In this document: positions 1,899 to 51,395 of the stretch, piece by piece
How positions within the stretch are numbered: position 1 is the stretch's first letter
Layout of the letters: each line of letters begins with the position of its first letter
DNA from: Candidatus Moraniibacteriota bacterium
GTDB lineage: Bacteria; Patescibacteriota; Minisyncoccia; Moranbacterales; DUUL01
DNA length: 51,395 bases
Reading direction: 5' to 3'
NCBI GenBank assembly: GCA_012841575.1
Contig: DUUL01000004.1
Coordinates: 1 to 51,395 of the forward strand
Translations under genes and position numbers: made by a program
Notes under the pieces: generated by a model
Seen by the model: the letters and a program-made list of their open reading frames with translations, nothing else
Database searches by the model: none
What the model was told of the DNA's origin: nothing

Positions 1899-1899
1899 T

Positions 1900-1927
1900 T
1901 TGAAAAAAATGTATTTTTTGTTATCAT
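1900..1927 (+). promoter_or_regulatory. Putative sigma70-type promoter (TTGAAA - 16 nt - TGtTATCAT) for the 1949 gene
   Basis: -35 TTGAAA at 1900-1905. Extended -10 TGt TATCAT at 1919-1927. Lies 22 nt upstream of the ATG at 1949. Confidence 0.4.
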
Positions 1928-1948
1928 TAGAATAATTAATTAGCAAAA

Positions 1949-2470: not shown

Positions 2471-2483
2471 AATTGTTTAAAAT

Positions 2484-3731: not shown

Positions 3732-3779
3732 TCTTATAAAAAGAAAGATTAATTAAGGAAAAATTAAAATCATTTTTAT

Positions 3780-19762: not shown

Positions 19763-19773
19763 TTTCTCAATTT

Positions 19774-25154: not shown

Positions 25155-25159
25155 ATTTA

Positions 25160-26032: not shown

Positions 26033-26078
26033 GGATTAATTGATTCGGGCAAGTTATTAACTTTTTAATTTTAGATTA

Positions 26079-27137
26079 ATGATCAAACGTAAAAAAACTA
26101 GAAAAATTATAGTTGGAGGAGTTGGTATTGGTGGTGATGAGCCAGTGCGAGTGCAATCAATGTGTAATACTGATACGCGAGATGTGAAAAAAACTGTTGC
26201 TCAGATTAGGAAACTAGAAAAAGTTGGCTGTGAATTAGTGCGAATAGCGGTGCCTGATATGGTGGCAGCGAAGAAAATTGCGGAAATAAAAAAGAGAATC
26301 AAGATCCCCCTAATAGCCGATATTCATTTTTCAGCTGATTTAGCGCTAGAAGCAATTAATCAAGGAATTGATAAGTTAAGAATTAACCCAGGCAATGTTC
26401 AGCCAATGAGCAAGATGGGAGAGATAGCTCGTCTATGCAAGCAGAAAAAAATTCCAATTCGGATTGGTGTTAATGGTGGTTCCTTAGAAAAGGATATTTT
26501 AAAAAAGTACAAAAATAAGGCAACTGCTAGAGGAATGGTAGAATCGGGGTTGAGGCACATTAGGATTTTGGAGAAGTTCAATTTTAAAGACATTGCTATT
26601 TCTCTTAAAGCTTCTGACATTGAGCGGACGGTGGAGGCCTACACTTTGATGTCGCAAAAAGTAAAATATCCTTTGCATGTAGGAGTAACGGAGGCGGGGA
26701 CTAAGTTTCGAGGAACAATAGTTAGTTCGATTGGAATTGGTACTCTTTTATATAATGGGATTGGTGATACTATTAGAGTTTCTTTAACTAGTGATCCTGT
26801 GGAAGAAATTCCAGTGGCTTATGAAATTTTAAATGCGCTAGAAATTAGAAAAACTAAACCTTCTGTCACAAGCTGCCCTACTTGTGGTAGAACGGAAATT
26901 AATATTGAAAAATTAACTAATGAAGTAGAAAAGATTACTCGAGAATTTTCCAAGCCAATTAAAATTGCAGTGATGGGTTGCGTAGTGAATGGCCCTGGAG
27001 AAGCACGTGAAGCCGATATCGCAGTAGTGGGAGGAAGAGGGGTGGGTTTAATTTGTCGAAAGGGAAAGATAATTAAGAAAGTGGCGGAGAAAGATTTGCT
27101 AAAACATTTTAAGCGAGAGCTAGAGAAAGAGCTGTAG
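26079..27137 (+). CDS. ispG: 4-hydroxy-3-methylbut-2-en-1-yl diphosphate synthase
   Basis: VQSMCNT, TSCPTCGRT and VMGCVVNGPGEA (4Fe-4S ligands). Confidence 0.9.
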   Translation: MIKRKKTRKIIVGGVGIGGDEPVRVQSMCNTDTRDVKKTVAQIRKLEKVGCELVRIAVPDMVAAKKIAEIKKRIKIPLIADIHFSADLALEAINQGIDKLRINPGNVQPMSKMGEIARLCKQKKIPIRIGVNGGSLEKDILKKYKNKATARGMVESGLRHIRILEKFNFKDIAISLKASDIERTVEAYTLMSQKVKYPLHVGVTEAGTKFRGTIVSSIGIGTLLYNGIGDTIRVSLTSDPVEEIPVAYEILNALEIRKTKPSVTSCPTCGRTEINIEKLTNEVEKITREFSKPIKIAVMGCVVNGPGEAREADIAVVGGRGVGLICRKGKIIKKVAEKDLLKHFKRELEKEL

Positions 27138-27163
27138 AGTTAATTAGTTAATTAACGATTATT

Positions 27164-28009
27164 ATGTCTAAACAAAAGATTATCGTTGCCAAGAATGCTG
27201 GATTTTGTTTTGGAGTTAATCGAGCGGTAAAAATGGCGGAAAAAGAATTAAAAAGAAAAAAACTAGTTTATTGTCTAGGAGCTTTAATTCATAACCCGCA
27301 AGTGGTGCAGGATTTGGAGCAAAAAGGATTTAAGGTAGTTAAAAAAGCGACGGAGGTACCAGAGGGACAAAAAGTTTTAATAAGAAGTCATGGTGTAACT
27401 AAGGAGATTATAGAAGAGTTAAGAAAGAGAGAGGCTAAGATTATTGATGCAACTTGTCCCTTTGTTAAGCGAGCTCAGTTGGTGGCAGAAAAATTTGCCA
27501 AGGAAGGTTTGCAGGTAATTATATTTGGCGACCCAGAGCATGCTGAGGTGGTTGGGATTAAATCCTATGCTGGCAAAAATGCTTTAGTGGTTCGTGATGA
27601 AAGAGATTTAAAAGGAATGGGAGCTTTCTCTAAAATTGGATTGTTAAGTCAAACTACACATAAGAAAGAGAATTTCCAAAAGTTAGCTTCAGCATTGTTG
27701 GCGCATACGGATGATCTGCACATTATTAATACAATTTGTTCTGATACGGCAATTAAGCAGGCGGAAGCTAAGGAGCTAGCGAAGAAAGTTGATTTGATGT
27801 TAGTAATTGGCGGGAAAGAATCTAGTAATACGAAAAAACTTTTTCAATTAAGTAAAAAGGGTTGTGAAAAAGCATATCACATTGAAGTTGCTGATGAAAT
27901 CAAGCCACAGTGGTTAGAGGGTGTGGAAGAAGTTGGAATCGCAGCGGGGGCATCTACGCCGGAAAAGTCAATTCGGGCAGTGGTAAAAAAAATAAAAGAA
28001 TCAATATGA
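27164..28009 (+). CDS. ispH: 4-hydroxy-3-methylbut-2-enyl diphosphate reductase
   Basis: AGFCFGVNRAV, DATCPFVKR and NTICSDT give the three cluster cysteines. GGKESSNTKKL. Confidence 0.9.
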   Translation: MSKQKIIVAKNAGFCFGVNRAVKMAEKELKRKKLVYCLGALIHNPQVVQDLEQKGFKVVKKATEVPEGQKVLIRSHGVTKEIIEELRKREAKIIDATCPFVKRAQLVAEKFAKEGLQVIIFGDPEHAEVVGIKSYAGKNALVVRDERDLKGMGAFSKIGLLSQTTHKKENFQKLASALLAHTDDLHIINTICSDTAIKQAEAKELAKKVDLMLVIGGKESSNTKKLFQLSKKGCEKAYHIEVADEIKPQWLEGVEEVGIAAGASTPEKSIRAVVKKIKESI

Positions 28010-28151: not shown

Positions 28152-28835
28152 ATGGCAGAGTTAAAATTAGTAGCTAATCTCAGAAATAAAGGGGAAAAAA
28201 GGGATGGAATGATTCCAGCGATTTTGTATGGCAGAGGAATTGAAAACAAGGTTCTATGGATAGATGAAAATAGTTTTATTAAATTAGAACGTGAGGCGGG
28301 AAGGAGTGTTTTGGTTGATTTGGAGGTTGAGGGAGAGAAGAATAGAGTGTTAATCCATGACTTTCAGAAAGACCCACTTACCGATAATTTTATTCATGTT
28401 GACTTTTATCAAGTAAGGATGGATGAAGAAATTGAAGCAAACGTAGAGGTCATTTTTGAGGGTGAGTCTCCAGCGGTGAAAGAGTTGGGTGGAGTGTTGT
28501 TGAAAACAGTTGACGAAGTTTTAGTTCGTTGTTTACCAGCTGATTTGCCGAAGGAAATCAAGGTTGATTTATCAGGACTTAAGACATTTGATGATAGGGT
28601 TTTTGTTAAGGATTTAAATATTTCTGATAAAGTTAAGATTGATCTAGATGGAGAAACCGTTGTTGCTTCTGTAGCAGCTCCTCGCTCAGAGGAAGAGTTG
28701 AGCAAATTAGACGAAGAGGTAGAGGGCGATATATCACAAATTGAGGGCATGGAGGACAAGTCAACTGAGGAAGTAGAGGCTGGTGGTGAAAAAGATGAGA
28801 AATCTGGTGATAAGGGCGACGATAAAAAGGAGTAA
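28152..28835 (+). CDS. rplY: 50S ribosomal protein bL25, long Ctc form with an acidic C-terminal tail
   Basis: IPAILYGRG and HVDFYQV motifs. 227 aa with a Glu/Asp/Lys-rich tail. Confidence 0.8.
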   Translation: MAELKLVANLRNKGEKRDGMIPAILYGRGIENKVLWIDENSFIKLEREAGRSVLVDLEVEGEKNRVLIHDFQKDPLTDNFIHVDFYQVRMDEEIEANVEVIFEGESPAVKELGGVLLKTVDEVLVRCLPADLPKEIKVDLSGLKTFDDRVFVKDLNISDKVKIDLDGETVVASVAAPRSEEELSKLDEEVEGDISQIEGMEDKSTEEVEAGGEKDEKSGDKGDDKKE

Positions 28836-35093: not shown

Positions 35094-35591
35094 ATGGAAG
35101 AAATTATTAAAACTTTTCATATCGACTGGAAGCTTTTGATAGCCCAAGCTGTTAATTTTGCTATCGTGGTTTTTGCATTATACAAATTTGCCTACAAGCC
35201 ACTTTTGAAAACTATGAATGAGCGAACAGCAAAGATTGAGCAAGGTTTAAAGGACGCGGAGCTCTCTCAAGAGAAATTAGCTGAGGCCGAAACAAGAAAG
35301 AAAGAAGAGATTATCAAGGCAAAAAAAGAGGCCAAAAAAATTATTGAAGAAGCAATGGAGCAGGCTAATGAAAATCAGGAAAAAATTGTTGCTAATGCTA
35401 AGGAGCGTGCGGAGAAAGTGACTGTAGAGGCAAAGGAACAAATTCAACAAGAGAAGGAGAAGATGCTCTTGGAAGTGAGACAGGAGATTGGTGAATTAGT
35501 CTTATTGACAACCGAAAAGATTATTGACGAAAAGATAAAAAAAGACGGCGATCAAGAAATTATCGCCAATTCAATTAAAGCGCTATCTTAA
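35094..35591 (+). CDS. atpF: F-type ATP synthase Fo subunit b
   Basis: One N-terminal TM (LLIAQAVNFAIVVFALY) plus a long charged helix. Operon position. Confidence 0.75.
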   Translation: MEEIIKTFHIDWKLLIAQAVNFAIVVFALYKFAYKPLLKTMNERTAKIEQGLKDAELSQEKLAEAETRKKEEIIKAKKEAKKIIEEAMEQANENQEKIVANAKERAEKVTVEAKEQIQQEKEKMLLEVRQEIGELVLLTTEKIIDEKIKKDGDQEIIANSIKALS

Positions 35592-35595
35592 TTTT

Positions 35596-36003
35596 ATGAG
35601 AATTAGTCCAAAGCAATATGCACGTTTGATTTTTGAGATGGCAGATGATTTGTCAGAGCCAGCTTTTTTGGTTGCTTTTAAAAAGGTGGCAAAGGTTATT
35701 TTTAAAAATAGAGACGAGCGAAAAATTGAAAAAATAGCTGATGAGCTAGTGAGTTTAATTAAGAAGAAAAAGGGACTAGCAGAGGTGAAAATTACAACAG
35801 CTGAGCCTTTGGAAGAAGAAAGCTTAAGTGCACTTAGGAATATTTTGGCACAAAGAAATAATTTGAATCTTGAAAATCTAAAGCTAGAAACAATAGTAGA
35901 CAAGAAGATTAAAAGTGGATTGATTATCCAAGTGAATAATGAGATTTGGGATAATAGCCTAAGAAGTAAATTACAGAGAATGAAGGCTAGCTTGGCTAGC
36001 TAA
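35596..36003 (+). CDS. atpH: F-type ATP synthase subunit delta (OSCP), short 135-aa form
   Basis: C-terminal SGLIIQVNNEIWDNSLRSKLQRM matches the delta/OSCP C-terminal signature. Operon position between b and alpha. Confidence 0.65.
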   Translation: MRISPKQYARLIFEMADDLSEPAFLVAFKKVAKVIFKNRDERKIEKIADELVSLIKKKKGLAEVKITTAEPLEEESLSALRNILAQRNNLNLENLKLETIVDKKIKSGLIIQVNNEIWDNSLRSKLQRMKASLAS

Positions 36004-40208: not shown

Positions 40209-40655
40209 ATGAAAAAAAAGATTAATTTGAAAATTGTAACACCAGAGCGGGTAATTTTGGAAAGTGAGGCAACTCAAATCACTTTACCGACTAAAGGATT
40301 GGGAGAAATAACCATCTTGCCAGACCACATTCCCTATTTGTCAATATTGGCACCTGGGTTAGTGGAGGTTAAAAATGGTGAAGAAGAAAGTGTTCCAATG
40401 GCAATTTCAGGGGGAGTTTTAGAGTTTCATGAAAATGAACTGACTTTATTGGCTGATACAGCTGAGCGAGCAGAAGAGATTGATTTAGAGCGAGCAGAAG
40501 AAGCTCGGAAAAGAGCAGAAAAAATGATGGCGGAAGAAAAGCGTAACTTAAGCTCAGAACAATATGCTGCAGTTGTTGGACAGCTAGAAAAGCAAATGGC
40601 TAGAATCAGAGTTGTGAAAAAATATCGCCCTCAGGTAATGAAAAAACACACCTAA
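40209..40655 (+). CDS. atpC: F-type ATP synthase subunit epsilon
   Basis: LKIVTPERVILESEA beta-sandwich start plus C-terminal helices. The ATG at 40209 is preferred over the GTG at 40206. Confidence 0.85.
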   Translation: MKKKINLKIVTPERVILESEATQITLPTKGLGEITILPDHIPYLSILAPGLVEVKNGEEESVPMAISGGVLEFHENELTLLADTAERAEEIDLERAEEARKRAEKMMAEEKRNLSSEQYAAVVGQLEKQMARIRVVKKYRPQVMKKHT

Positions 40656-40726
40656 GAATATTTAATTAGCTATTGAACTTACAAAGACCCAAAAAATAAG
40701 TTAAAACAAAAAAGATCTGCAAATAA

Positions 40727-41884
40727 ATGGGTAAAAATAAAAAAAAAGAACAATTGGCAGAAATTGATAAGAAGAGAAAAAATAGTCAGTCAGTCGGCAA
40801 AGGATTTTGGGGAGGCAAAAAGGCAAAAATAATCGTAGCGATAATTATTTTTGTTTTAACAGTCACCATTGGAGTAGGTGGCTCTTTTTGGTTAGTTTGG
40901 GAAGGTAAGATTACTAATGATAAAGTGGTTAGTTTGAGTAAAGATATTTTAGATAAATTTTATCCACAAGAGGAGCTAACAATCGGTTGGGTGACTGATG
41001 CTAAGTGCTATGGGAAACAAGATGATAAAACTGGAGAGAGGGAGTTAAATTGGCGCTGCATTGAGCCACTAGAGTCAATGGTTTGGAAGATGAATAATGA
41101 AACTAGTCCAGATTTAGTGGTTCAAGGAGGGAGTTTAATAAAAAATAAAGGCTTGCCATCAGAGGAGCTTTTTATGGCTGCCAGTGGAATTTTAAAGAAA
41201 ATTAAAGCGCCCATTTATCCTATAATTGGAGAAGAGGAGGTTCGTGGTTTTTCTAAAGAGCAGTGGCGTAATCTTTCTGGTCAAAGTAGTAATTATTACT
41301 ATGTTGATGAAGGGCGATATCGCTTAGTTTTTCTAGATACTAATAATTATCGATTGTCGGAGAGCGGTGAGATTGTTGATAGCGTACCAGGTCAATTTAG
41401 TAATGTGGGGCTAATTGATGAAAAGCAACTTAAATGGTTGGAGGCTACTCTGAAAAGTTCGCAACTGAGAAAGGTTTTAGTTTTTATGCATCACCCGCCA
41501 ATTTATACTGATTTAGAGACAGAAGAAAGCTCTTTCAGTCAGGATAGTGGAAACATAAGGACTTTATTTGCCAATTACAATGTTAAAGCGGTTTTTTCGG
41601 GCTATTTGGATCGAATGTGTCGACAGACATATCAGGGCGTTGAGTATTTTGTTTTGCAGGGGATTTGGGAAAGTAATGATAAGCTAAAGGAAGATTTTAG
41701 GTTTAAAAACGGAGGAATTTTTGGTGAAATCTATGTTTCTGAGGAGGCGACCAAGGTAATAGTAAACTATCACCGTAATCGAGGAGGCGGTTATTACGAC
41801 TTAGAGATTACTCCTGGAGGCTACTCCTGTCTAGACGGCTATACTCTAAGAGAGAGATATCAAGATAAAATTCAGTTAGACTAA
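40727..41884 (+). CDS. Membrane-anchored calcineurin-like metallophosphoesterase paralog with degenerate metal-binding motifs (probable pseudo-enzyme)
   Basis: Aligns along its length with the 47864-48949 product (RYRLVFLDTN vs DYRLIILDAN; LFANYNVKAVFSG vs LFENYEVSGVFNG). However, DxH becomes TDAK, GD becomes GGS, GNHE becomes GEEE and GH becomes GY. Only FMHHPP keeps its His. Confidence 0.6.
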   Translation: MGKNKKKEQLAEIDKKRKNSQSVGKGFWGGKKAKIIVAIIIFVLTVTIGVGGSFWLVWEGKITNDKVVSLSKDILDKFYPQEELTIGWVTDAKCYGKQDDKTGERELNWRCIEPLESMVWKMNNETSPDLVVQGGSLIKNKGLPSEELFMAASGILKKIKAPIYPIIGEEEVRGFSKEQWRNLSGQSSNYYYVDEGRYRLVFLDTNNYRLSESGEIVDSVPGQFSNVGLIDEKQLKWLEATLKSSQLRKVLVFMHHPPIYTDLETEESSFSQDSGNIRTLFANYNVKAVFSGYLDRMCRQTYQGVEYFVLQGIWESNDKLKEDFRFKNGGIFGEIYVSEEATKVIVNYHRNRGGGYYDLEITPGGYSCLDGYTLRERYQDKIQLD

Positions 41885-41894
41885 TTTAATTCCT

Positions 41895-41934
41895 AAATAA
41901 TTCTTTAATTTTATTTTTTTACAAAGAATTATTT
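41895..41934. terminator. Bidirectional terminator between convergent genes
   Basis: A perfect 12-bp inverted repeat, AAATAATTCTTT (41895-41906) with AAAGAATTATTT (41923-41934), around a T-rich loop. The right arm overlaps the stop of the minus-strand gene. Confidence 0.55.
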
Positions 41935-43518
41935 TCTAAAAACCAAAAGAGCAAATCTACCAGTTTCAAATTCAGCCACTAAGCGGGTGGATTTTTTATA
42001 ATGGTCGATGTTTTTCTTTTTTCTGTCCTTGTTGACAATAACGAAAAAAGTTTCCTCTTGAGAAAGTTTACTTTCAGAAACAAAAGATATTCTGAGTGAT
42101 TCTTTTTCTTGACAAATGTATTCCAGGGATCTTCCATATTCAAATTTTTTAATTCGAGCCTCATTTTCTCCAGAGATTTTCTTGATTGAATCACAGAGGC
42201 TATTTAGCTCTTTTTGACTAATGCCGCCATAAACACTGAGGGGTAGTTGATAGTTTTCTAGAGCATAGGCCTTGTTGTAGATAAAAAAGTTGTTTCCTAG
42301 GAGCAGTGCAAAACAAAAAATGGCTACAATTTGTTTTGGCGTGCTGTTTCTTTTTAAAAATTGTTGAACAATCAAGCCTAGTAAAAAAAATGGAATGGGA
42401 ATTAAAATAATGAAAAAGCGTATATTTAATTCTCCTCCGATTACCACAAAAAGGAAAAATGAGAGCAGGGAAAACGTTAATAGTAAGAAAGAGGAAAAGT
42501 TTTTACTAAGTAAATCTTTTTTGTTTTTTAGAAATTTTTTCCAAAAAGCAAAAAATCCTAGAGCGATAAAAACCAAAGACAAGCACAGTTGAGTTAATTC
42601 TTGGAAGTTACGCAGAGATATCATCTTAGAAAGGTTAAGCCAATTACTTTTTGGTGCTTGGCCGGTTAAAGTATAAAAAGTTCCTTGCAGAAAAAATGTA
42701 GCAGTGTTGCCTAGATTTTCAAAAAAACTTAATTCATTGTCGGTTTTTTTCTGAGCTCCGCTAAAAAAAGCACGTAAATTTTCTCCCTGATTTTCTAAAC
42801 TGCCGTAGACAAAAGGAATATTGAGGGTAAAAATGACTATTAGCAATAGAGTGATTTTGGTCCAGGGGAAATCAGACTTTATTTTATAGAAAAGCATCAA
42901 CCCCAGAGTCAATAAGAGCATTGCTGGCATTAAGATTAATAAGGTTGTGTGCAGTTGAACGCCAATCCCAGTAACAACTCCCAGTAGAAGACAGTCTAGC
43001 CAACTAAGTTTCTCTTTATTGTAAATTTGACTGAGCAATAAGAAAAAGGCTAAGAGGAAAAAGGGAATCGCATTGGGGTTCCAAGCAAAACGAGAATATT
43101 TAATAACAAAAAAAGAGCTTGCATAAAGTAAGGAAAGTCCTAGTGCTAGAGGGAGAGAAAATATTTTTCGGAAAAATAGGTAAAAAAGATAGATAGAGGC
43201 AATAGACAGCAATGGAATGAAAAAAGCAATTCCTGTTGGTGAGAATCCAAAAAATAGGCCAGATAAAAATTCTAAATAATAGAAAGCTGGTCCTAAATTG
43301 AAGGTAGTTCCGCCAGCTTTTGGTCCGAGCAAGGGCCAGTTGCCAGATTGCATTTCTTGTACAACTTTAATGTCTCGAGCTTGGTCATTGTTGAAACGAA
43401 GGTAATCGCCAAAATAACTAAGACGTAGCCAGGCGCCAAGCAATAAAACAAGAACAATTAGGATTTTTGCTGGATGCTTTTTTATTTTTTTGTAAACAGA
43501 ATTCAAATAATTAATCAT
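41929..43518 (-). CDS. GT-C-fold polytopic membrane glycosyltransferase, 'DQARD' subtype (ArnT/PMT-related)
   Basis: 529 aa. The first-loop acidic motif RFNNDQARD is followed by GNWPLLGPKAGGTTFNLGPAFYY. About 12 TM helices plus a C-terminal soluble domain. Paralog of the partial CDS at 50668. Confidence 0.6.
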   Translation of the reverse strand: MINYLNSVYKKIKKHPAKILIVLVLLLGAWLRLSYFGDYLRFNNDQARDIKVVQEMQSGNWPLLGPKAGGTTFNLGPAFYYLEFLSGLFFGFSPTGIAFFIPLLSIASIYLFYLFFRKIFSLPLALGLSLLYASSFFVIKYSRFAWNPNAIPFFLLAFFLLLSQIYNKEKLSWLDCLLLGVVTGIGVQLHTTLLILMPAMLLLTLGLMLFYKIKSDFPWTKITLLLIVIFTLNIPFVYGSLENQGENLRAFFSGAQKKTDNELSFFENLGNTATFFLQGTFYTLTGQAPKSNWLNLSKMISLRNFQELTQLCLSLVFIALGFFAFWKKFLKNKKDLLSKNFSSFLLLTFSLLSFFLFVVIGGELNIRFFIILIPIPFFLLGLIVQQFLKRNSTPKQIVAIFCFALLLGNNFFIYNKAYALENYQLPLSVYGGISQKELNSLCDSIKKISGENEARIKKFEYGRSLEYICQEKESLRISFVSESKLSQEETFFVIVNKDRKKKNIDHYKKSTRLVAEFETGRFALLVFRK

Positions 43519-43536
43519 TAACTTTTTTGTTTCCAG

Positions 43537-45435
43537 CTATTTTTCAAATTCAATTATGCGAACAAAATTAGCTGGACGATTATTAATATTAAGTTCCCAG
43601 GTTGGATTTATCTCACCTTTTTTAAAATAGTAAAAAGTGTCTTTTTCTTCATCAGGATTATTCTCAAAAATGAAATGATTTTTTTCTTTCAGAATCGCTC
43701 GAGTGGAAACAATCAAATAGTCTGGTTGAATTTGCGCAAGATCAATTTTTCGACTACGCAAACATTTACCCTTGAAGAAAAGACAGAATGAGTTGCTATT
43801 GGAGTAGACAACCATGTTTTCTACGCCCTCAAGGGAATTTAGATGTTGTGCTGCTTCATAAAATCCATGTCCCCAAGTGTCGTGAATGCTATATTTCTTT
43901 GGCAATAGAAAACTTTCATAGCTAAAGTAGAAGGGTTTGATTTGCCAGAGAGATAAGACGCTAAGAGTTAGAATGGTAAATAAAATAGCTATAATTTTTT
44001 TCTTAGAAGTCCAGCCGATAGATTTCATGATCTCATTTAGAGCAATGGCGCAGAAGATAGCAAAGAGCGGGTAGAGGATAATTGAGTAGCGTACGTTGGT
44101 GACAATTTTCGCAACAAAGGTAGCAAAAAAATAAAGAGGAATAAATAAAGCAATGGTGAAAAGGATTAAGTTATTGGGGTAAGTTATTTTTTGGCGATAG
44201 GACTTGAGGGTAATGAGCAAGACTAATAAAACAAAAAAAGGCGAGACGGAGAAAATAAAGGGATAAGTCTCCATTAACAATAATTTAAAATTATCATACA
44301 AGGTTGCATTTTTTCGATCCAAAAGAGGTTTGAAATTAAAGTTTTTCGGTTCATTTGCGTAGGCTAGGTCACTCAACTCATTAACTGGAGCTAGACTTTG
44401 ATTTGTCCAAAGATTGAAAATTGAAATGATGAAAACTAGACTTAGTAGAGTTAATGAACTAGCCAAGAGAAACTTTTGCCATTTTGACAGAAAAGCAGAA
44501 ATTTGAGCGGTTAGGTCTTTTTTCCAAAAAACTAAAGCTAAAAAAATTATTAAAGTTATTGTGCCCAAATAAATTAACTTTGAGTTTAAAAATTGTGCAA
44601 TTCCTTCAAAAAATACTTGTGGTTTGACAAAAGTAGCGGGTAGAAAAATAGCAAAAATAATTGCTGAAATTAGAAAAATAACAAGCCAAGAGCCAATTAA
44701 TCTAGGGAGAAAAGTTGCATCAAGAGGTTTTGATTCAGAACTTTTTTCTTTCGGTGGAAAAATTAATTTAGCTAGTCCAGCTATAATAAAAATAGCGTAT
44801 AAAATAAAAGAAGTATATTTAGATAGAAGTGCAAAGCCCATTAAAATTGAACAAATAATCAAAAATTTCTTTTGGTTAGTATTGAGATAGGCTAAATAAG
44901 CAACAGTTGTGAGTCCTCCAAAAATCCAGAAAAAGCTATCGGGGTTAATAATTTGTGAAATTCCAATCAGAATTGGACTTAGCCCGATAAACATTGTTGT
45001 CATTAAAGCAAGTCGAGTTGAGCCCAGAGCCGGTTTTAGCAAGAAGAAAAAAGCTAAAATAGAAAGAGTGGAGAAAATTAAAATTGGCAAACGAAAATAG
45101 AAATTAAGCTGCTCAGTTTTCTGAGGATCATATTTTTTAAATAATTTGGCATCTTCAGTGGCACTAAGAGAGCTTGATAACTTGGGATCGGGTTCTGCAA
45201 GCAAGCCGAAGCCAGAGATTAACGCCACAGTAATTCCAGGCTTATCATTGATGGATGTTTTTACCCAGTCTCTATCTTGCAACGCCTGCCAATATTGTCC
45301 AATGCGACCATATTTCCAAAGGTGCTCATCAGCAGTTTCAAACTTACTTAAGTGGTAAAAACCAAAACTGAAAAAAACAACAATAGTCATTGCTAAGAAA
45401 AGATAAGTAGAGTTTTTTTGCAAGAACTTTTTCAT
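43537..45435 (-). CDS. GT39/PMT_2-like (ArnT-type) polyprenyl-phosphate-sugar-dependent membrane glycosyltransferase
   Basis: 632 aa. First periplasmic-loop motif TADEHLWKYGR...INDKPGITV. Polytopic, with a C-terminal soluble domain. Confidence 0.65.
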   Translation of the reverse strand: MKKFLQKNSTYLFLAMTIVVFFSFGFYHLSKFETADEHLWKYGRIGQYWQALQDRDWVKTSINDKPGITVALISGFGLLAEPDPKLSSSLSATEDAKLFKKYDPQKTEQLNFYFRLPILIFSTLSILAFFFLLKPALGSTRLALMTTMFIGLSPILIGISQIINPDSFFWIFGGLTTVAYLAYLNTNQKKFLIICSILMGFALLSKYTSFILYAIFIIAGLAKLIFPPKEKSSESKPLDATFLPRLIGSWLVIFLISAIIFAIFLPATFVKPQVFFEGIAQFLNSKLIYLGTITLIIFLALVFWKKDLTAQISAFLSKWQKFLLASSLTLLSLVFIISIFNLWTNQSLAPVNELSDLAYANEPKNFNFKPLLDRKNATLYDNFKLLLMETYPFIFSVSPFFVLLVLLITLKSYRQKITYPNNLILFTIALFIPLYFFATFVAKIVTNVRYSIILYPLFAIFCAIALNEIMKSIGWTSKKKIIAILFTILTLSVLSLWQIKPFYFSYESFLLPKKYSIHDTWGHGFYEAAQHLNSLEGVENMVVYSNSNSFCLFFKGKCLRSRKIDLAQIQPDYLIVSTRAILKEKNHFIFENNPDEEKDTFYYFKKGEINPTWELNINNRPANFVRIIEFEK

Positions 45436-45499
45436 TTTGAGGGCAATTTAATGTTTATTGGGTAAACTTAGTTTAAGTAAGTCAAGTTAAATGCTTGTT

Positions 45500-47836
45500 T
45501 TATTTATCAATACAAACATCTTCGGCTTTAATTACTTTAATGTATTGAGCTTGAGGACGTTGTGCAGGAGAGAAAAGAAAGACAGGCTGTAAGTTCGGGT
45601 CATAGAGACGATCAACTCGAGGTATGTATGTAGGCACTTTAGCTAAGCGTTGATTAATAAGGTTGACAAAATAATTTTCACGACTAGAGGAAATTACATA
45701 AAAGTCATAAGTGGGTATTTCTGGTATAATTTTTTCTATTCTTCTAGTATCGTTACAGTTTCCAACAAAAAACTTACAGATCCCGGTTCGATCTGACCAC
45801 AATGAAAGCTCTGAGGCATTAGGTTGTTGATTTAGCCACATAGCTACTTCATAATTGCCTTCTCCCATGTCTTTAGGATTGATTACCATGCTTGAGGGGA
45901 GAAGAGGATTGTTAAAAGAAAAATAATAAGGCTTTTGCAACCAAAGCATCGAAGTGCTTTCGACAGCAATCAAAAAAAGAAAGATTAAAATAAAAACCTT
46001 GCCTGTCTTATTTGATCTGTAGACAATAATTTTTTCCAAAACTGGTTTCCAGCCTAGAGCAGCGATGATCAATATAATAGGGAGTAGAGCGATTTGGTAG
46101 CGGAGACTAGGAACAACAGAGGCGCTTAATGAGGCTAGATAGTAACCGTGAATAAAGAGCCAACTAAAAAGCAAGATTCTTTTTTCTGAATCAGAGTAGT
46201 TTTTTTTCCAAGGTGAATTAAAGAAGAAGGAAAAAATAACACCAAGAAAGGAAAAGAGATTCAGGCCGAAAACCAAGGGAAGGAAAGAAGCTAAATACAT
46301 TCCCGCAAAACTAAATTCTCGATAGGATGATTTGGGGGAGATTAAAATTGAGTTGAAGTTAACAGAAGGCAAAGCAAAATAAACGCTGCTTAGTAAAAGT
46401 AGAAAGGCAGCTCCAGACCACAGCCAGACAAAAGTGCTGAAATGATTTTTTAGTGGTTTGAGAAATTTAAATAAAAGAAAGGAGATTCGATTTCGGAGCA
46501 GGAATGTTTCTAGAAGAAACAAGACAAGCACGCCAGTAAAAATCCAACCAAAATTACCAAAAGCTTGACTTTTAATAGTGCCGATTAGCAATCGATCATG
46601 TTTTAGCCAAACGCCGGGATAAAGTAAGGTGAATATAGAAAGTGCGATAACCAGCCAACTTAAATAATTTAGCCAACTTTTTTTTAAGAAAGAATGAAGT
46701 GTTTGCAGATTATTCGTTTTGAAAAGTGCTTGATAAAGAATAACCAAGAAGATGAAAACAATCAGGAAATTGGCAATGTATTTTGTCAACAAGGCAAGCC
46801 CCAGCAAGATCCCACTGTAAATTAAGAACTTGTTTTTATTCCGAGAAGAAAGCAGGAAGGCTAGGTAAGCAAAAAAGGACAAAGGGAGAAAAATCCATAG
46901 CAAGGCGTCCGGGTTGACCAAGCGAGATATTCCTAGAAGTAAGGGAGAAAGTCCGATAAAGATTGTTGCAAGTAGAGCAGGAATTTTTCCTATTAGAGGA
47001 TTTAATAAAAAGAAAAAAGCTAGAATCGCTAAAGTTGAAAAGACAACAATTGGCGCTCTCATTCGAGTAAAAAATCTTGGTAATTCCTCGGTGTTTTTCT
47101 GTCCCTTGTCAAAGTAGTTAGGATCTTCCCATGGTAATCCAGCACCAGAGATGATTGAGACAGTGATACCTGGTTTGTCACTAGGGCGAGTGTTAAGCCA
47201 ATCTTTTTCAGCTAAATTGTTCCAGTATTTTTCAATCCGATTAAAAAACCATAAGTCTTCATCAGAATAATAGTCTTGGCCTAGCTTATAGAAACCAAAA
47301 AATAAATGAAGAGCAAGAATAAGTACTAATAAAATTGCTTTTGAATAGAAAGGTTTTTTAAGTCTAGGTTTAGTTGGGCTTTTAATTAAAAAAGAGATTT
47401 TTGGGAAAACCAAGTTTAGTTTTAAGTAATAAAAAACTAAAAAGTTAAGAAAAAGTAGAAATAGAAAAATGGAGGAGATGGGAATAATGGGATTAAAGGA
47501 GTTAGGGGTATTCGAAGTAAAAAGTAAAATTAAGTTGGCTGGAGTTACTAGCCAAAAAAAGTTAAAAAAGAAAGTGGTCCAGTTATTTTTTTTCTTAATT
47601 AAATCGTTAATTAGGGGTAGAAAGGAAATTACAAAAACAATTAAAATTAGAAAAGTTGGCGGAGCAAAAGGAGGGAGAATATTTTTTATGCCATAAAACT
47701 GCTCCAGGTTGTTAATTGAGTACAATAAAACTAAAATTCCAAGTGACAAAGAACCACTTAATAAAAAAATATTTTCACGAAAAATTTTTTTAACTTGATT
47801 TAAAACAGCCATCTTGTATACTAGGTAATTAATCAC
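45500..47836 (-). CDS. GT39/PMT_2-like membrane glycosyltransferase, tandem paralog with a roughly 165-aa extra N-terminal multi-TM extension
   Basis: 778 aa. YSDEDLWFFNR...PSDKPGITV and FSTLAILAFFFLLNP align with the upstream-neighbour paralog. The start is either the GTG at 47836 or the ATG 24 nt inside. Confidence 0.65.
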   Translation of the reverse strand: MINYLVYKMAVLNQVKKIFRENIFLLSGSLSLGILVLLYSINNLEQFYGIKNILPPFAPPTFLILIVFVISFLPLINDLIKKKNNWTTFFFNFFWLVTPANLILLFTSNTPNSFNPIIPISSIFLFLLFLNFLVFYYLKLNLVFPKISFLIKSPTKPRLKKPFYSKAILLVLILALHLFFGFYKLGQDYYSDEDLWFFNRIEKYWNNLAEKDWLNTRPSDKPGITVSIISGAGLPWEDPNYFDKGQKNTEELPRFFTRMRAPIVVFSTLAILAFFFLLNPLIGKIPALLATIFIGLSPLLLGISRLVNPDALLWIFLPLSFFAYLAFLLSSRNKNKFLIYSGILLGLALLTKYIANFLIVFIFLVILYQALFKTNNLQTLHSFLKKSWLNYLSWLVIALSIFTLLYPGVWLKHDRLLIGTIKSQAFGNFGWIFTGVLVLFLLETFLLRNRISFLLFKFLKPLKNHFSTFVWLWSGAAFLLLLSSVYFALPSVNFNSILISPKSSYREFSFAGMYLASFLPLVFGLNLFSFLGVIFSFFFNSPWKKNYSDSEKRILLFSWLFIHGYYLASLSASVVPSLRYQIALLPIILIIAALGWKPVLEKIIVYRSNKTGKVFILIFLFLIAVESTSMLWLQKPYYFSFNNPLLPSSMVINPKDMGEGNYEVAMWLNQQPNASELSLWSDRTGICKFFVGNCNDTRRIEKIIPEIPTYDFYVISSSRENYFVNLINQRLAKVPTYIPRVDRLYDPNLQPVFLFSPAQRPQAQYIKVIKAEDVCIDK

Positions 47837-47863
47837 GGTGACTTTAATTTTAGCATAAAATAA

Positions 47864-48949
47864 TTGATAAACAAGGACAATCTAAACAGTAACAAAAAGA
47901 AATTTAGATTTAATAAGTGGTTTTTTGGCGCAGTAATTTTGAGTGTTTTTTTATTTTTCTTTTTTCGAGCAGTTTCACTTGGTCTATTGAGTGGTGAAAT
48001 TGATTCTCGTTTTGAAATTCAAAAAGTTTTCTTTCTTCCCGCAGTTAATAAGGAGGTTCAAACTGAATCTAAGCCTCTTAAAATTGGAATAATTACTGAT
48101 ACGCATGTTCGACCTAGTCGAATGGGGCAATATAGCAATGAGTTGCATATGGTTGAACGCAGGCTGACACCTAGCCAGTTAGCGCCCATCAATGCCTTTG
48201 TAATGGAGATGGAAAAATTTCAACCAGACTTAATTATTCATTTAGGAGATGTGATTGAGGGGTCTGGTGATACGGAGGAAATCGGCAGGTTGGGTTTGAA
48301 ATTAGTTAAGGAAGAATTAGAAAAAGTTGGGGTGCCCATTTTGTGGGTTTTGGGAAATCACGAATTGAGAGCTGTTACTAAGGAGCAATTCAAAGATTCT
48401 CTGGGAATTAACTATCTGGACGAGTATTTTGACTGGGGAGACTATCGGTTAATTATTTTAGATGCTAATCACAGTAAAAAAGTTAGTAAAGAGGAAAGTG
48501 AGAATTCCTTGAATCTAAAATTAAGCTCTGGGTTTTTGCCGGAAGAAACTCTGGATTGGTTAGAAGATGCACTAGATACACCTAAGGCCACTTTTGTTTT
48601 TTGTCATTATGCCATCTTTGATCAAGTTTTTTTTGGAGAAAAGGGTCGACCAAGACTTTCTCTTAAGCCAGCCGCAAGAGTGAGGGATCTTTTTGAGAAT
48701 TATGAGGTTTCTGGGGTTTTTAATGGACATATTGAGTATCGTCGTTTTGAAGAAACTAACGGAGTGAAATATTTTTCTTTACCTGGAACAGTTAAAAGCA
48801 AAACATATCCTGGCTCTTTTTATACCCTAACTATTGATAAAGGTGAGCCGAAACTAAAAATGTTTTATCAGGCAGGAGGGCGACACGGAGAATACGTTGA
48901 TGTTTCTTTTGAGGATGAAGAGAGTTTTTTAGAACTAAATAACGATTAA
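47864..48949 (+). CDS. Membrane-anchored calcineurin-like metallophosphoesterase with intact motifs
   Basis: N-terminal TM WFFGAVILSVFLFFFF. Motifs GIITDTHV (DxH), HLGDVIEG (GD), VLGNHEL (GNHE), FVFCHYA (H) and FNGHIEY (GH). TTG start. Confidence 0.7.
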   Translation: MINKDNLNSNKKKFRFNKWFFGAVILSVFLFFFFRAVSLGLLSGEIDSRFEIQKVFFLPAVNKEVQTESKPLKIGIITDTHVRPSRMGQYSNELHMVERRLTPSQLAPINAFVMEMEKFQPDLIIHLGDVIEGSGDTEEIGRLGLKLVKEELEKVGVPILWVLGNHELRAVTKEQFKDSLGINYLDEYFDWGDYRLIILDANHSKKVSKEESENSLNLKLSSGFLPEETLDWLEDALDTPKATFVFCHYAIFDQVFFGEKGRPRLSLKPAARVRDLFENYEVSGVFNGHIEYRRFEETNGVKYFSLPGTVKSKTYPGSFYTLTIDKGEPKLKMFYQAGGRHGEYVDVSFEDEESFLELNND

Positions 48950-49005
48950 ATTCAATTGCTTTCTTTTTCTATTGTTGATAAAATAAATTAGCCTTTAAAA
49001 AGCTG

Positions 49006-50619
49006 ATGTTTTTTGTGCTAAAAAATCAGGTTAAAATTATGATAAAATTAAACAAAAAGATCGGTTTAGTTTTACTGGGAGCAGTTCTTTTAATTGCTGT
49101 TTTTTTGCGTTTTTACAATTTAGGGGAAAAGTCTTTTGTAGCAGATGAGTTTTTAGGAGTAAATGCTAGCTATGGTTATTTGCAAACTGGTGATTGGAAG
49201 CGGTGGGATTTCAATTTAGAAAAACCAATGCAAGACAAACCTTTTGTGAAAAACTGGTTTGATTGGGACGTTTTCAAAGGTGGCCCAGAGACTTATACTC
49301 GTGCTTGGATTTATCATTGGCAGATTGCACAAGCCTTGAAACTTCTACCTGATGCGAAAGAATGGTCATATCGAGTGGTGAGTGCTTTATGGGGCGTGCT
49401 GTCAGTGTTAATTGTTTATCTTCTTGCTTGGAAATTTACTGGCAAAAGATGGATTGGCTTAATTGCGGCAACTCTTTTAGTCTTGAGTCCTGATGCAATT
49501 GATTTTTCGCGTAAAGTGCGAATGTATGCAATGTTTATGCCAATATTTTTCTTATTAAGTTACTGGTTTTTTAAGTTTCTAGAATCGAAAGAAGAGTATC
49601 AAAATAAGCTGTTGACTGGATTTAAAGCTAAAACAGGATTGGACCTGGTTTACTTGCCGGGTGTTATTCTGCTTGGACTTTTAGCGATGCATTTACATGC
49701 ACTGACTGCCAATATTGCCATTCTAGCGCTAGTTTATATTTTAGTAATGACAATTCGTGAGTGGAGGAAAAGTAAAAGTTGGAAGAATCGCTATAGTGCT
49801 TATTTGTTAATTGCGTTTTTGGGAATAATTGGTTTGAAAATATTTTTTAAAGATGTTGTAATTTGGGGAGTTTATTTTGATAATGAGCAACATTTTTCCT
49901 ATTTTAGTAAAATTCTAACTGATTACAGTAGCTTGTTTTTACCAATTGGCTTGTTTTTAGCGGGCGGGTGGTGGCTGATTAAAGAAGATAGAAAGAGTGG
50001 TTGGTTTTTATTGACTTCCTTTATGACAATTTTGATTTTAGCAGTTTTCTTTTGGAATCGTAGCGCTGGTGAGCAATATATTTTTTTCTTGAAGCCATTT
50101 CAGGTTACAATTTTAGCGACAGGCATTTATGCAGTGGCAAAATACTTGAAGGATAATTTTCGGTCAAACAATAATAAGATTTTTTACAGTTCCATAGTCA
50201 TTTTGATTTTAGTGCTTAATAATTGGAGTTATTATTATTCAGTTGATGGTCCATATAAACAGAAAGCTAATTCTGATAGTCCTAATTATCGCAAAATTTT
50301 CAGTTATGTAGTAAAAGAGAAAAAGCAGGAAGAGGTTTTGATAACGCGCAATTTTCGTAACTTTTATTGGCAAGGAAGTCAATCGAAGGTTTATAGTTTG
50401 GGTGGAGAGCGAGCAGAGGCTTCCGAGAAAAAAATTGATTTAATTTCGATGAAAAAAATTATTGCAGATAATCCAGCAGGTGGCTGGATTGTGCTTTCGG
50501 AAAATGATCGACAATTTATTTCTAAAGAAGTAGAAGAGTATTTAAGGAAAAATCTAGATTTGGTTAGCAATTCATTTTTAAGAGGTCCAGTAACAGTCTA
50601 TCATTGGGAGACCAACTAG
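49006..50619 (+). CDS. GT39/ArnT-like membrane glycosyltransferase
   Basis: 537 aa. RFYNLGEKSFVADEFLGVNASYGY (first-loop DE motif), SPDAIDFSRKVRMY, polytopic with a C-terminal soluble domain. An alternative ATG lies at 49039. Confidence 0.65.
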   Translation: MFFVLKNQVKIMIKLNKKIGLVLLGAVLLIAVFLRFYNLGEKSFVADEFLGVNASYGYLQTGDWKRWDFNLEKPMQDKPFVKNWFDWDVFKGGPETYTRAWIYHWQIAQALKLLPDAKEWSYRVVSALWGVLSVLIVYLLAWKFTGKRWIGLIAATLLVLSPDAIDFSRKVRMYAMFMPIFFLLSYWFFKFLESKEEYQNKLLTGFKAKTGLDLVYLPGVILLGLLAMHLHALTANIAILALVYILVMTIREWRKSKSWKNRYSAYLLIAFLGIIGLKIFFKDVVIWGVYFDNEQHFSYFSKILTDYSSLFLPIGLFLAGGWWLIKEDRKSGWFLLTSFMTILILAVFFWNRSAGEQYIFFLKPFQVTILATGIYAVAKYLKDNFRSNNNKIFYSSIVILILVLNNWSYYYSVDGPYKQKANSDSPNYRKIFSYVVKEKKQEEVLITRNFRNFYWQGSQSKVYSLGGERAEASEKKIDLISMKKIIADNPAGGWIVLSENDRQFISKEVEEYLRKNLDLVSNSFLRGPVTVYHWETN

Positions 50620-50667
50620 TGCGTGATAGCTAAGCTTATCATTTTAAATTTAATTATTTATGAAAAA

Positions 50668-51395
50668 ATGAAGATTAATTTTAAAAGATTTTTTCGTTCT
50701 AAGGTTTTTTATTCTCTTTTAATTATTTTTGCGGTTGGAGTTTTTTTGCGAGCCTATAATTTTGGGCCGTGGCTTCATTTTGAACTAGATCAAGCACGAG
50801 ATGCCACTTTAGTGGACGAGTCAGTTCAAGATGCTGGCAATTTACCGCTTTTAGGTCCAAGAGCAGCGGGGACTTTTGCACGCTTGGGTCCTTGGTTTTA
50901 CTACACTGAATATTTTTTCGCCTTAATTTTTGGTAATCCACCAGTTGGAGGCGCTGTGGCAATTTTATTTTTTGCTTGCTTGTCATTGCCAGTCTTTTAT
51001 CTATTTTTTAGAAGATATTTTTCTAAAGAAAAAACTTTAGCGTTAACTGCTCTATATGCAGTTTCGCTTTATTTTATTACTTATGCTCGTTTTGGTTGGA
51101 ACCCGAATTTAATGCCTTTTTTCATTTTAGTTTTGATGTATGGACTTTTACGTGCTTTTGATAAAGATGAAGAGAATGAGGGATGGTGGTTGATTGTTTC
51201 AGCAACAGCTTTTGCGCTATTGTCGCAATTTCACTTTTTAGCATTAATTATATTTGGCTTGACTGGGCTAGGATTTTTGATTTATTGTCGCCCTCGCATT
51301 AATTGGAAGTTTTGGGCAAGCTCTATTTTGATTGTCCTATTCTTCTATTGCCCAGTTATTGTTAATGACTGGAAGACAGGAGGAGCTAACTATAA
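50668..51395 (+). CDS. GT-C-fold membrane glycosyltransferase, 'DQARD' subtype, 3' end beyond the window
   Basis: Not in the ORF track because no stop is reached. My own translation from the ATG at 50668 is open to base 51395: MKINFKRFFRSKVFYSLLIIFAVGVFLRAYNFGPWLHFELDQARDATLV...GNLPLLGPRAAGTFARLGPWFYY, clearly paralogous to the 41929-43518 product. Confidence 0.55.
   Translation, partial: MKINFKRFFRSKVFYSLLIIFAVGVFLRAYNFGPWLHFELDQARDATLVDESVQDAGNLPLLGPRAAGTFARLGPWFYYTEYFFALIFGNPPVGGAVAILFFACLSLPVFYLFFRRYFSKEKTLALTALYAVSLYFITYARFGWNPNLMPFFILVLMYGLLRAFDKDEENEGWWLIVSATAFALLSQFHFLALIIFGLTGLGFLIYCRPRINWKFWASSILIVLFFYCPVIVNDWKTGGANY

Follow-up and report, generated by a model that had tools for sequence, protein, structure and literature searches.

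Enzymes of the GT-C fold are outer-face glycosyltransferases in every domain of life and act with polyprenyl-phosphate-linked sugar donors at the outer face of the membrane. In the Arn pathway of lipid A modification, the GT-C enzyme ArnT (GT83) belongs to a set that also includes Ugd, ArnA, the GT2 protein ArnC and ArnE/F. The mannoses of glycosylphosphatidylinositol (GPI) are added by GT-C mannosyltransferases. From GPI mannose (Man2), PGAP5/MPPE1 (yeast Ted1/Cdc1), a membrane-bound, non-cytoplasmic metallophosphoesterase (MPE), removes ethanolamine-phosphate (PMC8222316). Gram-positive bacteria perform transmembrane glycosylation with a GT2 enzyme (CsbB/GtrB), a small flippase (GtcA) and a GT-C enzyme (YfhO, YkcB, YkoS) (PMC8035078, PMC11898649). 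In Bacillus subtilis the anchored MPE UpsH (YpbG) cleaves teichoic and teichuronic acid precursors linked to undecaprenyl-diphosphate (UndPP) and thereby frees undecaprenyl-phosphate (UndP) on the cytoplasmic face (PMC11898649). Here we analyse seven genes at positions 40727-51395, the last 10.7 kb of contig DUUL01000004.1 of a Candidatus Moraniibacteriota bacterium (51,395 nt, hereafter the window), which according to the listing of open reading frames (ORFs) encode five GT-C membrane glycosyltransferases (GTC_A to GTC_E) and two anchored MPEs (MPE1 and MPE2). This bacterium is a member of the Patescibacteria, which live attached to host cells and whose surface chemistry is almost unknown.

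We consider it probable, at a rough probability of 0.6, that these genes belong to a conserved Moranbacterial cluster for the assembly of a surface glycan at the outer face, in which an MPE is the dedicated partner of the A-type GT-C enzyme, represented here by GTC_A. The system falls within multi-component transmembrane GT-C glycosylation; new to it are the dedicated MPE partner, the layout with five paralogues and a conserved, probably dead MPE paralogue. Full-text literature searches, including searches on Patescibacteria/Moranbacteria, ArnT and GT39, brought up no account of GT-C and MPE proteins being paired or fused and none of a GT-C enzyme with a built-in phosphoesterase, in agreement with the preliminary description of this DNA, which knew of no characterised system of a GT-C with an anchored MPE. 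In the following, L001-L061 designate related loci and P00xx or P02xx homologous proteins. Order and strands of the seven genes are as previously described, and the region contains the following features:

40727-41884, plus strand: MPE1, 385 aa, convergent with GTC_A
41895-41934: hairpin between the convergent MPE1 and GTC_A genes, overlapping the GTC_A stop codon
41929-43518, minus strand: GTC_A, 529 aa, GT-C of the 'DQARD' type
43537-45435, minus strand: GTC_B, 632 aa, loop-1 'DE' motif, middle gene of the C-B-A triad
45500-47836, minus strand: ORF of GTC_C, first gene of the triad, start probably at ATG 47812 and not at GTG 47836
47813-47863: divergent spacer of 51 nt between GTC_C and MPE2, conserved in sequence with L001
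47864-48949, plus strand: MPE2, 361 aa, TTG start
49006-50619, plus strand: GTC_D, 537 aa, third GT-C subfamily, loop-1 'ADE' motif
50668-51395, plus strand: GTC_E, second 'DQARD'-type GT-C, partial (242 aa), running off the window

Like the Gram-positive systems, this one relies on outer-face PMT_2-type GT-C enzymes, and the related loci L056, L059 and L060 add a GT2 gene (about 312 aa) and a flippase-like protein; in the window itself neither GT2 nor flippase was found. In contrast to the single GT-C gene of those systems, five paralogues share one cluster here, the candidate flippase is an LPG_synthase_TM/MprF-like protein instead of GtcA, and there is an MPE partner, fused or adjacent, which is absent from the described systems. 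The best structural matches of GTC_A include ArnT (TM-score 0.51-0.54, a likeness at the fold level only), and related loci resemble the Arn pathway in combining genes for a UDP-sugar 6-dehydrogenase, an NAD-dependent epimerase/dehydratase, GT2 and GT-C proteins. However, no NCBIfam ArnT match was obtained for our proteins, neither an aminotransferase nor a deformylase was seen, and the Arn pathway includes no MPE.

Among the MPEs, UpsH is similar by description, being a protein with a single transmembrane (TM) anchor that is tied to polyprenyl-linked envelope glycopolymer intermediates. Its catalytic domain was placed in the cytoplasm experimentally, opposite to the orientation predicted here, and UpsH belongs to COG1408, is under SigM stress control and is neither fused to nor clustered with a GT-C gene. 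PGAP5 is comparable in its logic; it is eukaryotic and not part of a gene fusion, and homology is not shown beyond the MPE superfamily. In sequence, the MPE2-family profile matches GpdQ, Rv0805, CpdA and the ADPRibase-Mn-like 2nxf best of all solved structures. They differ from the proteins described here, which have GH-x-E in place of GH-x-H as the last motif and to which the N-terminal anchor, the predicted outward orientation and the fusion to GT-C are specific.

The strongest evidence for a dedicated partner is provided by gene fusions. Among the 120 best GTC_A homologue clusters, 27 consist of single proteins of 790-879 aa in which PMT_2 is followed by Metallophos. All 27 fused MPE domains carry intact D-H, GD, NH, H and H-x-E motifs and cluster with one another in the MPE tree. 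The tree of the GT-C proteins instead has the fusions dispersed among unfused forms, in six to seven groups, and the GTC_A clade adjoins a fused clade (both trees were built by neighbour-joining and not bootstrapped). Because of this scatter, an old fusion followed by repeated loss or fission appears to be the simplest reading of the sequences. A profile of the fusion searched against 1.84 billion representatives detected at least nine full-length fusion representatives (50% identity level). The same profile also detected seven stand-alone proteins (318-333 aa) in which the match is confined to the MPE part (315-360 bits); a hydrophobic anchor is present at the N-terminus of each. In L061, the stand-alone anchored MPE P0212 is encoded 1 nt downstream of an A-type GT-C gene and upstream of a convergent LPG_synthase_TM gene. 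This is the position occupied by the fused MPE in L056 and L060, with which P0212 shares the C-terminal tail.

Since the fusion ORFs come from independent sources, assembly or gene-calling artefacts are an unlikely explanation for them; public databases list them as 'metallophosphoesterase', 'glycosyltransferase family 39' or 'hypothetical'. An AlphaFold2 model of the fusion (predicted local distance difference test score, pLDDT, 88.4) has a gap of about five residues between the last strand of the C-terminal domain of the GT-C part and the beginning of the MPE, and no TM helix intervenes; with a predicted TM-score (pTM) of only 0.70, the model does not fix with confidence how the two domains are arranged. 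The preliminary description had suspected a pairing of GT-C and MPE genes. With 27 of 120 clusters fused and the adjacent split pair in L061, we take the pairing to be real and functionally meaningful for the A-type. An A-type GT-C and its MPE probably work together outside the cell. The series of fusion, fission and pseudoenzyme forms offers concrete pairs for experiments, such as the fusion protein P0086 or the pair of L061.

All five GT-C proteins score above the Pfam gathering thresholds for PMT_2 and/or PMT (GTC_A: PMT_2 3.9e-9; GTC_B: PMT 7.8e-9, PMT_2 2e-8; GTC_C: PMT 7.5e-12; GTC_D: PMT_2 1.2e-7, PMT 2.8e-5; GTC_E: PMT_2 1.2e-8). Folds were compared because PDB sequence searches (phmmer or profile, with GTC_A, GTC_C, GTC_D and an A/E alignment) returned nothing meaningful and no PMT sequence. 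The AlphaFold2 model of GTC_A, based on 44 homologues (pLDDT 92.3, pTM 0.92), shows a K-rich N-terminus and 11 hydrophobic helices, with residues 427-528 forming an alpha/beta domain at the C-terminus. Without exception, the Foldseek PDB matches of this model at ranks 1-35 are GT-C enzymes, namely AglB, ArnT, STT3, PglB, PMT, AftA, DPY19, EmbA/B, ALG9, AftD and ALG3. The GT-C fold of the proteins, as initially proposed, is thus affirmed by model and Foldseek for GTC_A, and by Pfam PMT/PMT_2 matches above the gathering score for GTC_B, GTC_C, GTC_D and GTC_E.

Membership in better known families was tried and rejected. Orthology to PMT (CAZy GT39) does not agree with the absence of MIR domains from all five proteins (Pfam scan at E <= 0.1, yielding only PMT/PMT_2 membrane-module matches) and of any PMT match in the PDB. 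ArnT (GT83) membership does not agree with the missing NCBIfam ArnT match and the merely fold-level similarity. The NCBIfam models gave nothing above their curated cut-offs, and the only GT-C matches were to Agl23 (TIGR03663), at 18-36 bits against a cut-off of 126. We conclude that the five proteins are GT-C enzymes of uncharacterised specificity and not PMT or ArnT orthologues. The 'GT39' in database names reflects the PMT_2 model and not orthology, so that 'GT39' proteins of this kind should not be annotated as protein O-mannosyltransferase orthologues.

All-versus-all BLASTP found GTC_A and GTC_E to be 36% identical and GTC_B and GTC_C 33%, with no detectable paralogue of GTC_D in the island, which divides the enzymes into three subfamilies, A/E, B/C and D. 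Acidic residues in the first extracytoplasmic loop after TM1 occur in every one of them. The loop-1 residues D45, Q46, R48 and D49 of GTC_A (DQxRD) are invariant in the 44 homologues, and the acidic residues of this motif also in nine A/E-type sequences from the loci. A loop-1 D-E pair is invariant in eight B/C-type sequences, and loop 1 of GTC_D reads 'VADEF' in translation. DKPG, NPD and two C-terminal Cys residues are further invariant features of GTC_B. GTC_C and its orthologues have about 170 additional N-terminal residues in comparison to GTC_B, comprising 4-5 hydrophobic helices ahead of the GT-C module, and the DE motif of GTC_C is found at residue 192.

MPE1 and MPE2 are 30% identical (BLASTP) and both exceed the gathering score of Pfam Metallophos, MPE2 clearly (8.7e-17) and MPE1 weakly (7.5e-6). 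The motifs D-x-H, GD, GNHE, H and GH-x-E of MPE2 are intact (D79/H81, G128/D129, N165/H166, H248, H289), and all 54 MPE2 homologue clusters have the same motif set, with GNH[DE] variation. The last motif, GH-x-E (MPE2 residues 288-291, window 48725-48736), is present in every member of the MPE2 family, in all 27 fused domains and in P0058, whereas outgroup MPEs from L051, L054 and L055 retain GH-x-H. To judge from this distribution, GH-x-E works as a family signature, and it may indicate a different metal preference.

In MPE1 the corresponding positions read D-K, G-S, E-E, H and Y-D, so that five of the eight metal or catalytic residues are replaced. MPE1 was therefore rejected as an active metallophosphoesterase even though it is homologous to the family, and the preliminary description's idea that the esterases trim or recycle phospho-linked intermediates cannot be assumed for it. 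P0056 has the residues of MPE1, P0057 shows similar losses, and the partial relative P0058 still has GHIE. The degeneracy is conserved in three orthologues, and between the window and L001 MPE1 is better conserved than MPE2 (72% and 56% identity, respectively). Motif loss together with this conservation suggests that MPE1 is a conserved pseudoenzyme, probably inactive. MPE1 scores 166 bits with the profile of the fused MPEs and 132 bits with that of the MPE2 family, and because of the higher score with the fused-domain profile, an origin of MPE1 from the GT-C-associated MPE lineage would fit.

Searched against the PDB, the MPE2-family profile identified phosphodiesterases or pyrophosphatases, 2nxf, GpdQ and Rv0805, as its closest solved relatives (E 1.7e-11 to 1e-7). 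Membership in the class III cyclic-nucleotide phosphodiesterases (CpdA/SpdA/Rv0805) or in the GpdQ family was rejected, since scores fell far below the family thresholds; the best NCBIfam matches of the MPEs were SpdA with 34-41 bits (cut-off 400) and CpdA with 22-24 bits (cut-off 225). Proteins of the MPE1 type should accordingly not be annotated as cyclic-nucleotide phosphodiesterases.

The preliminary description had put both enzyme classes on the same, outer face on account of their TM anchors, and prediction from TM anchors and GT-C architecture gives the same result. MPE1 has one TM segment (residues 35-53) preceded by 12 K/R in 34 residues, and MPE2 one (residues 16-34) with a K/R-rich N-flank. 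Since a single TM segment follows a K/R-rich flank, the positive-inside rule predicts that both MPE domains face outward, sharing a side of the membrane with the GT-C C-terminal domain, which in GTC_A is predicted to be outside because 11 TM helices follow a canonical cytoplasmic N-terminus. Crude hydropathy counts of TM helices were inconsistent (7-16 for the GT-Cs; 10 for the fusion and 11 for GTC_A), and helices of the AlphaFold2 model were used instead. For the A-type partner an outer-face position is likewise predicted, because the MPE is either fused to an extracytoplasmic domain or, in the split form, has its own signal anchor.

The layout of the region is conserved in relatives. L001/L002, a 74-kb Logan contig, is fully syntenic with the window, in the order ATP synthase gamma, beta and epsilon, MPE1, GTC_A, GTC_B and GTC_C on the minus strand, MPE2, GTC_D and GTC_E. 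Beyond GTC_E it continues with GT4, LPG_synthase_TM, Wzx, Tmk and RtcB, and no GT2 gene was found within 10 kb downstream. Identities between window and L001 are 88-92% for the ATP synthase subunits, 62% for GTC_A, 75% for GTC_B, 67% for GTC_C, 79% for GTC_D and 81% for GTC_E, which is full-length in L001 (12871-14595, 574 aa). The C-B-A triad is found in the same order on one strand in L056-L060, with C of 737-768 aa and B of 615-633 aa followed by A; GTC_C orthologues leading the triad measure 737-774 aa when L001 is included, and GTC_B orthologues are 51-56% identical at the same position in L056-L058. Of these loci, L056 and L060 contain the fusion, and L057, L058 and L059 have the triad with no adjacent MPE. 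Genes of 389 and 394 aa beside GTC_A in L057 and L058 were considered as MPE1 orthologues and ruled out by BLAST.

Upstream of the triad, L056, L059 and L060 share a divergent PMT_2 gene (584-593 aa) and a gene of 511-527 aa, which in L056 are E-like (50% to GTC_E) and D-like (38% to GTC_D). Downstream they share a convergent LPG_synthase_TM gene, GT4, UDP-glucose/GDP-mannose 6-dehydrogenase and the GT2 gene of about 312 aa. A Wzx flippase is encoded in L056 and L058, an NAD-dependent epimerase/dehydratase in L059 and L060, and a NosD-type beta-helix protein nearby in L056 and L060. The window thus holds the left part of a conserved cluster. What the preliminary description had taken for an inverted gene block is the conserved C-B-A triad operon, on the minus strand here and retained in L001 and L056-L060. 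Next to the GT-C cluster of L060, a gene at 1615-3921 (minus strand) encodes a secreted beta-helix protein of 768 aa with a C-terminal PGA_cap domain, the domain of the metallophosphoesterase-like CapA family; the protein has no detectable similarity to MPE1 or MPE2.

Based on these data we propose that outside the membrane a growing acceptor would be extended by each of the five GT-Cs in turn, with polyprenyl-phosphate-linked sugars as presumed donors. The GT2, dehydrogenase and flippase-like genes of related clusters are the only support for such donors, and it is indirect. Such serial GT-C steps would be analogous to mycobacterial arabinan assembly and lumenal N-glycan assembly. Judging from relatives, the rest of the cluster would consist of GT4, the MprF-flippase-like LPG_synthase_TM, UDP-sugar 6-dehydrogenase, GT2, Wzx and the NosD beta-helix protein. 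The GpdQ/Rv0805-like MPE with GH-x-E would be the dedicated extracytoplasmic partner of the A-type enzyme and would occur in three forms, fused, as a separately anchored protein encoded immediately downstream (L061), or as two anchored paralogues in the lineage of the window. In the latter, MPE1 beside GTC_A would have lost its metal site and probably be a non-catalytic binding or scaffold subunit, and the intact MPE2 lies at the presumed divergent promoter.

With regard to its chemistry, we infer that the bond cleaved by the MPE is a phosphodiester or pyrophosphate and that its cleavage is coupled to the reaction of the A-type enzyme. As first choice it may act on the carrier lipid at the outer face and regain polyprenyl-phosphate from released polyprenyl-diphosphate or from a stalled polyprenyl-(P)P-sugar, which would make it an outside counterpart of UpsH; as second choice it may remove a phospho-substituent from the acceptor or product glycan in the manner of PGAP5. 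We rank carrier-lipid chemistry slightly above editing of acceptor or product, although the evidence does not discriminate between them. The carrier reading is favoured because of Wzx and GT4 in the cluster and Bac_transf near the MPE2-family locus L004, which imply an UndPP-linked intermediate whose transfer would release UndPP outside. Carrier-lipid recycling or phosphoglycan editing at the outer face, offered here as a hypothesis, would complement the recently discovered cytoplasmic carrier-releasing enzymes UshA and UpsH.

Several points weigh against this proposal. ArnT/PMT-like GT-C enzymes release polyprenyl-monophosphate, and no phosphatase is needed. Genes for GT2 and Ugd were found neither in the window nor in the flank of L001. 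Because the three triad genomes L057, L058 and L059 lack an adjacent MPE, the partner must be locally dispensable or encoded elsewhere. The MPE2 family resides mostly in housekeeping neighbourhoods (CTP_transf-Obg-MPE-Band_7 or UvrA-MPE-UvrC), the fusion model has only the pTM given above, and the topology rests on the positive-inside rule and canonical GT-C architecture. Moreover, UpsH demonstrates that an anchored MPE can face the cytoplasm (PMC11898649).

Two alternatives keep the A-type enzyme and its MPE together. One, possible yet clearly less probable than the proposal above, is that they form a bifunctional extracytoplasmic enzyme, fused or of two subunits, in which glycosyl transfer from a polyprenyl carrier would be coupled to phosphoester cleavage, with MPE1 as a dead regulator of what would then be a pseudoenzyme-controlled GT-C. 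Such an enzyme might build or edit a surface polymer containing phosphodiesters, or it might combine oligosaccharyl transfer with built-in dephosphorylation of the carrier. In the lineage of the window, the catalytic partner beside GTC_A would have been replaced by the dead MPE1 in a substrate-binding or regulatory role.

The other, on which we would put no higher a value, is polymer remodelling, in which the MPE would cleave glycerol-phosphate, ethanolamine-phosphate or sugar-phosphate units of a glycan or teichoic-like polymer and so expose the acceptor site to the A-type GT-C, or else edit the product of this enzyme. The C-terminal extracytoplasmic domain binds the acceptor in solved GT-C enzymes, and it is this domain to which the MPE is attached in the fusion model. 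GlpQ and PhoD provide a precedent for cleavage of teichoic acids, the glycerophosphodiesterase GpdQ and Rv0805, which is associated with the cell wall, are among the closest relatives of known structure, and PGAP5 is a precedent for the removal of a phospho-substituent (PMC8222316). In about ten loci, MPE2-family genes have a small CTP_transf_like gene nearby, which might be TagD-like. However, genes of teichoic acid synthesis (LtaS, TagF, TagB) were found neither in the window nor in the related loci examined, and scores with the NCBIfam models of named phosphodiesterases fall far short of the cut-off.

It is rather doubtful that the two gene classes are coincidental neighbours, brought together by an expansion of PMT_2-type GT-C paralogues, which is common in small-genome Patescibacteria, and by general extracytoplasmic phosphodiesterases or nucleotidases that scavenge phosphate or nucleotides. 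What speaks for coincidence comes from the MPE2 family, whose genes in about 50 loci are mostly flanked by Obg, CTP_transf_like, Band_7 and SerRS or by UvrA/UvrC. The frequent arrangements are CTP_transf_like-Obg-(NosD beta-helix)-MPE-(MFS)-Band_7-SerRS, the position between UvrA and UvrC and the vicinity of GT4 genes. On the 1.5-Mb contig of L003/L059 an MPE2-family gene is located about 80 kb from the GT-C cluster, and JGI names some MPE2 homologues 'alkaline phosphatase'. Against coincidence, the same MPE family is fused to the A-type GT-C in 27 independent clusters, the split pair in L061 is operonic, L001 is fully syntenic, and MPE1 matches the fused-domain profile better than that of the MPE2 family.

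For MPE2 itself the association is narrower. GT-C genes flank members of its family only in the clade of the window (window, L001, L009) and in L007/L018 and L038, and because the family usually occupies housekeeping contexts, the adjacency of MPE2 to GT-C genes is lineage-specific. The preliminary description had named a lack of conserved MPE/GT-C adjacency as an observation that would speak against the pairing; for MPE2 this is half the case, given the mostly Obg/Band_7 or UvrA/UvrC contexts of its family. Among the genomes of GTDB species, relatives of the MPE2 family are confined almost entirely to metagenome-assembled genomes (MAGs) of Candidatus Moranbacteria/Moraniibacteriota, and one source names an MPE2 homologue as a Patescibacteria-group protein.

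The contexts of the MPE2 family contain further regularities. An MPE2-family gene is inserted exactly between uvrA and uvrC in five to six loci (L006, L019, L023, L029, L048; MPE at about 10001), an odd place for repeated insertion that has no evident connection with glycan genes. A NosD/Beta_helix (CASH-type) gene directly precedes MPE2-family genes in L003 (9229-9954), L004 (1706-2659), L006 (8966-9937), L043 and L033, and L056 and L060 also have this beta-helix gene, within or adjacent to their GT-C cluster; the NosD beta-helix is a second recurrent partner of the family. Upstream of the MPE in L007 (8129-10086), two ORFs of 227 and 421 aa stand for one B/C-type GT-C, whose counterpart in the similar locus L018 is a single ORF of 652 aa; L007 is likely to contain a frameshift or an error of sequencing. 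Moranbacteria-like MPE loci with GT-C or Obg contexts also come from several MAGs that bear the titles 'uncultured Bdellovibrionales', 'Pseudobdellovibrionaceae' or 'Micavibrio' (L009, L014, L015, L017, L018, L023, L027, L036, L042, L046, L047, L050); these titles may be mislabelled, or the bins mixed.

That a recent segmental duplication and inversion created two modules of 'MPE plus DQARD GT-C', as the preliminary description had suggested from the presence of one of each on either flank of the island, is highly improbable, since the paralogues are only 30% (MPE1/MPE2) and 36% (A/E) identical, L056 and L001 each have distinct genes of the A-type and the E-type, GTC_D separates MPE2 from GTC_E, MPE1 lies outside the MPE2 family in trees (on a long branch of uncertain placement), and no DNA repeat marks a duplication, the 79-nt inverted match of 75% between 43050-43128 and 51052-51130 being conserved coding sequence of the RFAWNPN region of two old paralogues.

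Between MPE1 and GTC_A, the preliminary description had postulated a bidirectional terminator with a 12-bp stem. The hairpin exists, with 12 consecutive A-U pairs, no G-C pair and a loop of 14-16 nt, and its fold energy is -6.7 kcal/mol on the plus and -11.2 kcal/mol on the minus strand (z -2.9 and -3.6 against shuffles); its role as terminator is plausible, not demonstrated. A consensus promoter/terminator scan of 40500-51395 gave counts equal to those of shuffles and missed the hairpin, the terminator scan being G+C-dependent and the stem entirely A-U. The divergent junction between GTC_C and MPE2, previously given as 27 nt (47837-47863), is probably longer. The GTC_C orthologue in L001 begins with MTLLNQVKKIF, which matches MAVLNQVKKIF from the internal ATG 47812 of the window, and because of this alignment the real spacer is probably 47813-47863. 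We presume that it serves as a shared promoter region for GTC_C and MPE2.

As the preliminary description had stated, the triad contains the only credible minus-strand genes of the window, judged by ORFs of at least 100 aa, Pfam and a tRNA scan. The only other minus-strand ORFs of this size, 28409-28759 and 35583-35903, both lie inside longer plus-strand ORFs, the former in the Pfam-confirmed L25 gene, and no tRNA gene was found on either strand of the window. GC skew is strongly positive throughout (0.12-0.38 in 2-kb windows), including the minus-strand GT-C block, and the window as a whole resembles a single leading-strand stretch in which only the C-B-A triad is on the lagging strand. ATP synthase genes directly precede the island, again as described. 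MPE1 starts 8 nt after atpC in L001 (2390-4020) and 71 nt after it in the window, and because of these short gaps it may be co-transcribed with the ATP synthase operon as its last gene.

Neither a GT2 gene nor a flippase gene was found in a scan of 30 ORFs of the window. The GDP-mannose synthesis gene named in the preliminary description is ManC at 10-807. Of the supposedly complete methylerythritol phosphate (MEP) operon, dxr, ispD, ispF, ispE, ispG and ispH are present in one run (22827-28009); dxs was not found among the window ORFs scanned, which leaves the pathway incomplete within the window. Three ORFs, 1949-2470 (173 aa), 3780-4697 (305 aa) and 7070-8449 (459 aa), have no Pfam match at E <= 1e-5, and the second of them has about nine predicted TM helices. 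At 17891-20340, a polytopic DUF2157 membrane protein of 623 aa is directly followed by a GDYXXLXY-family protein.

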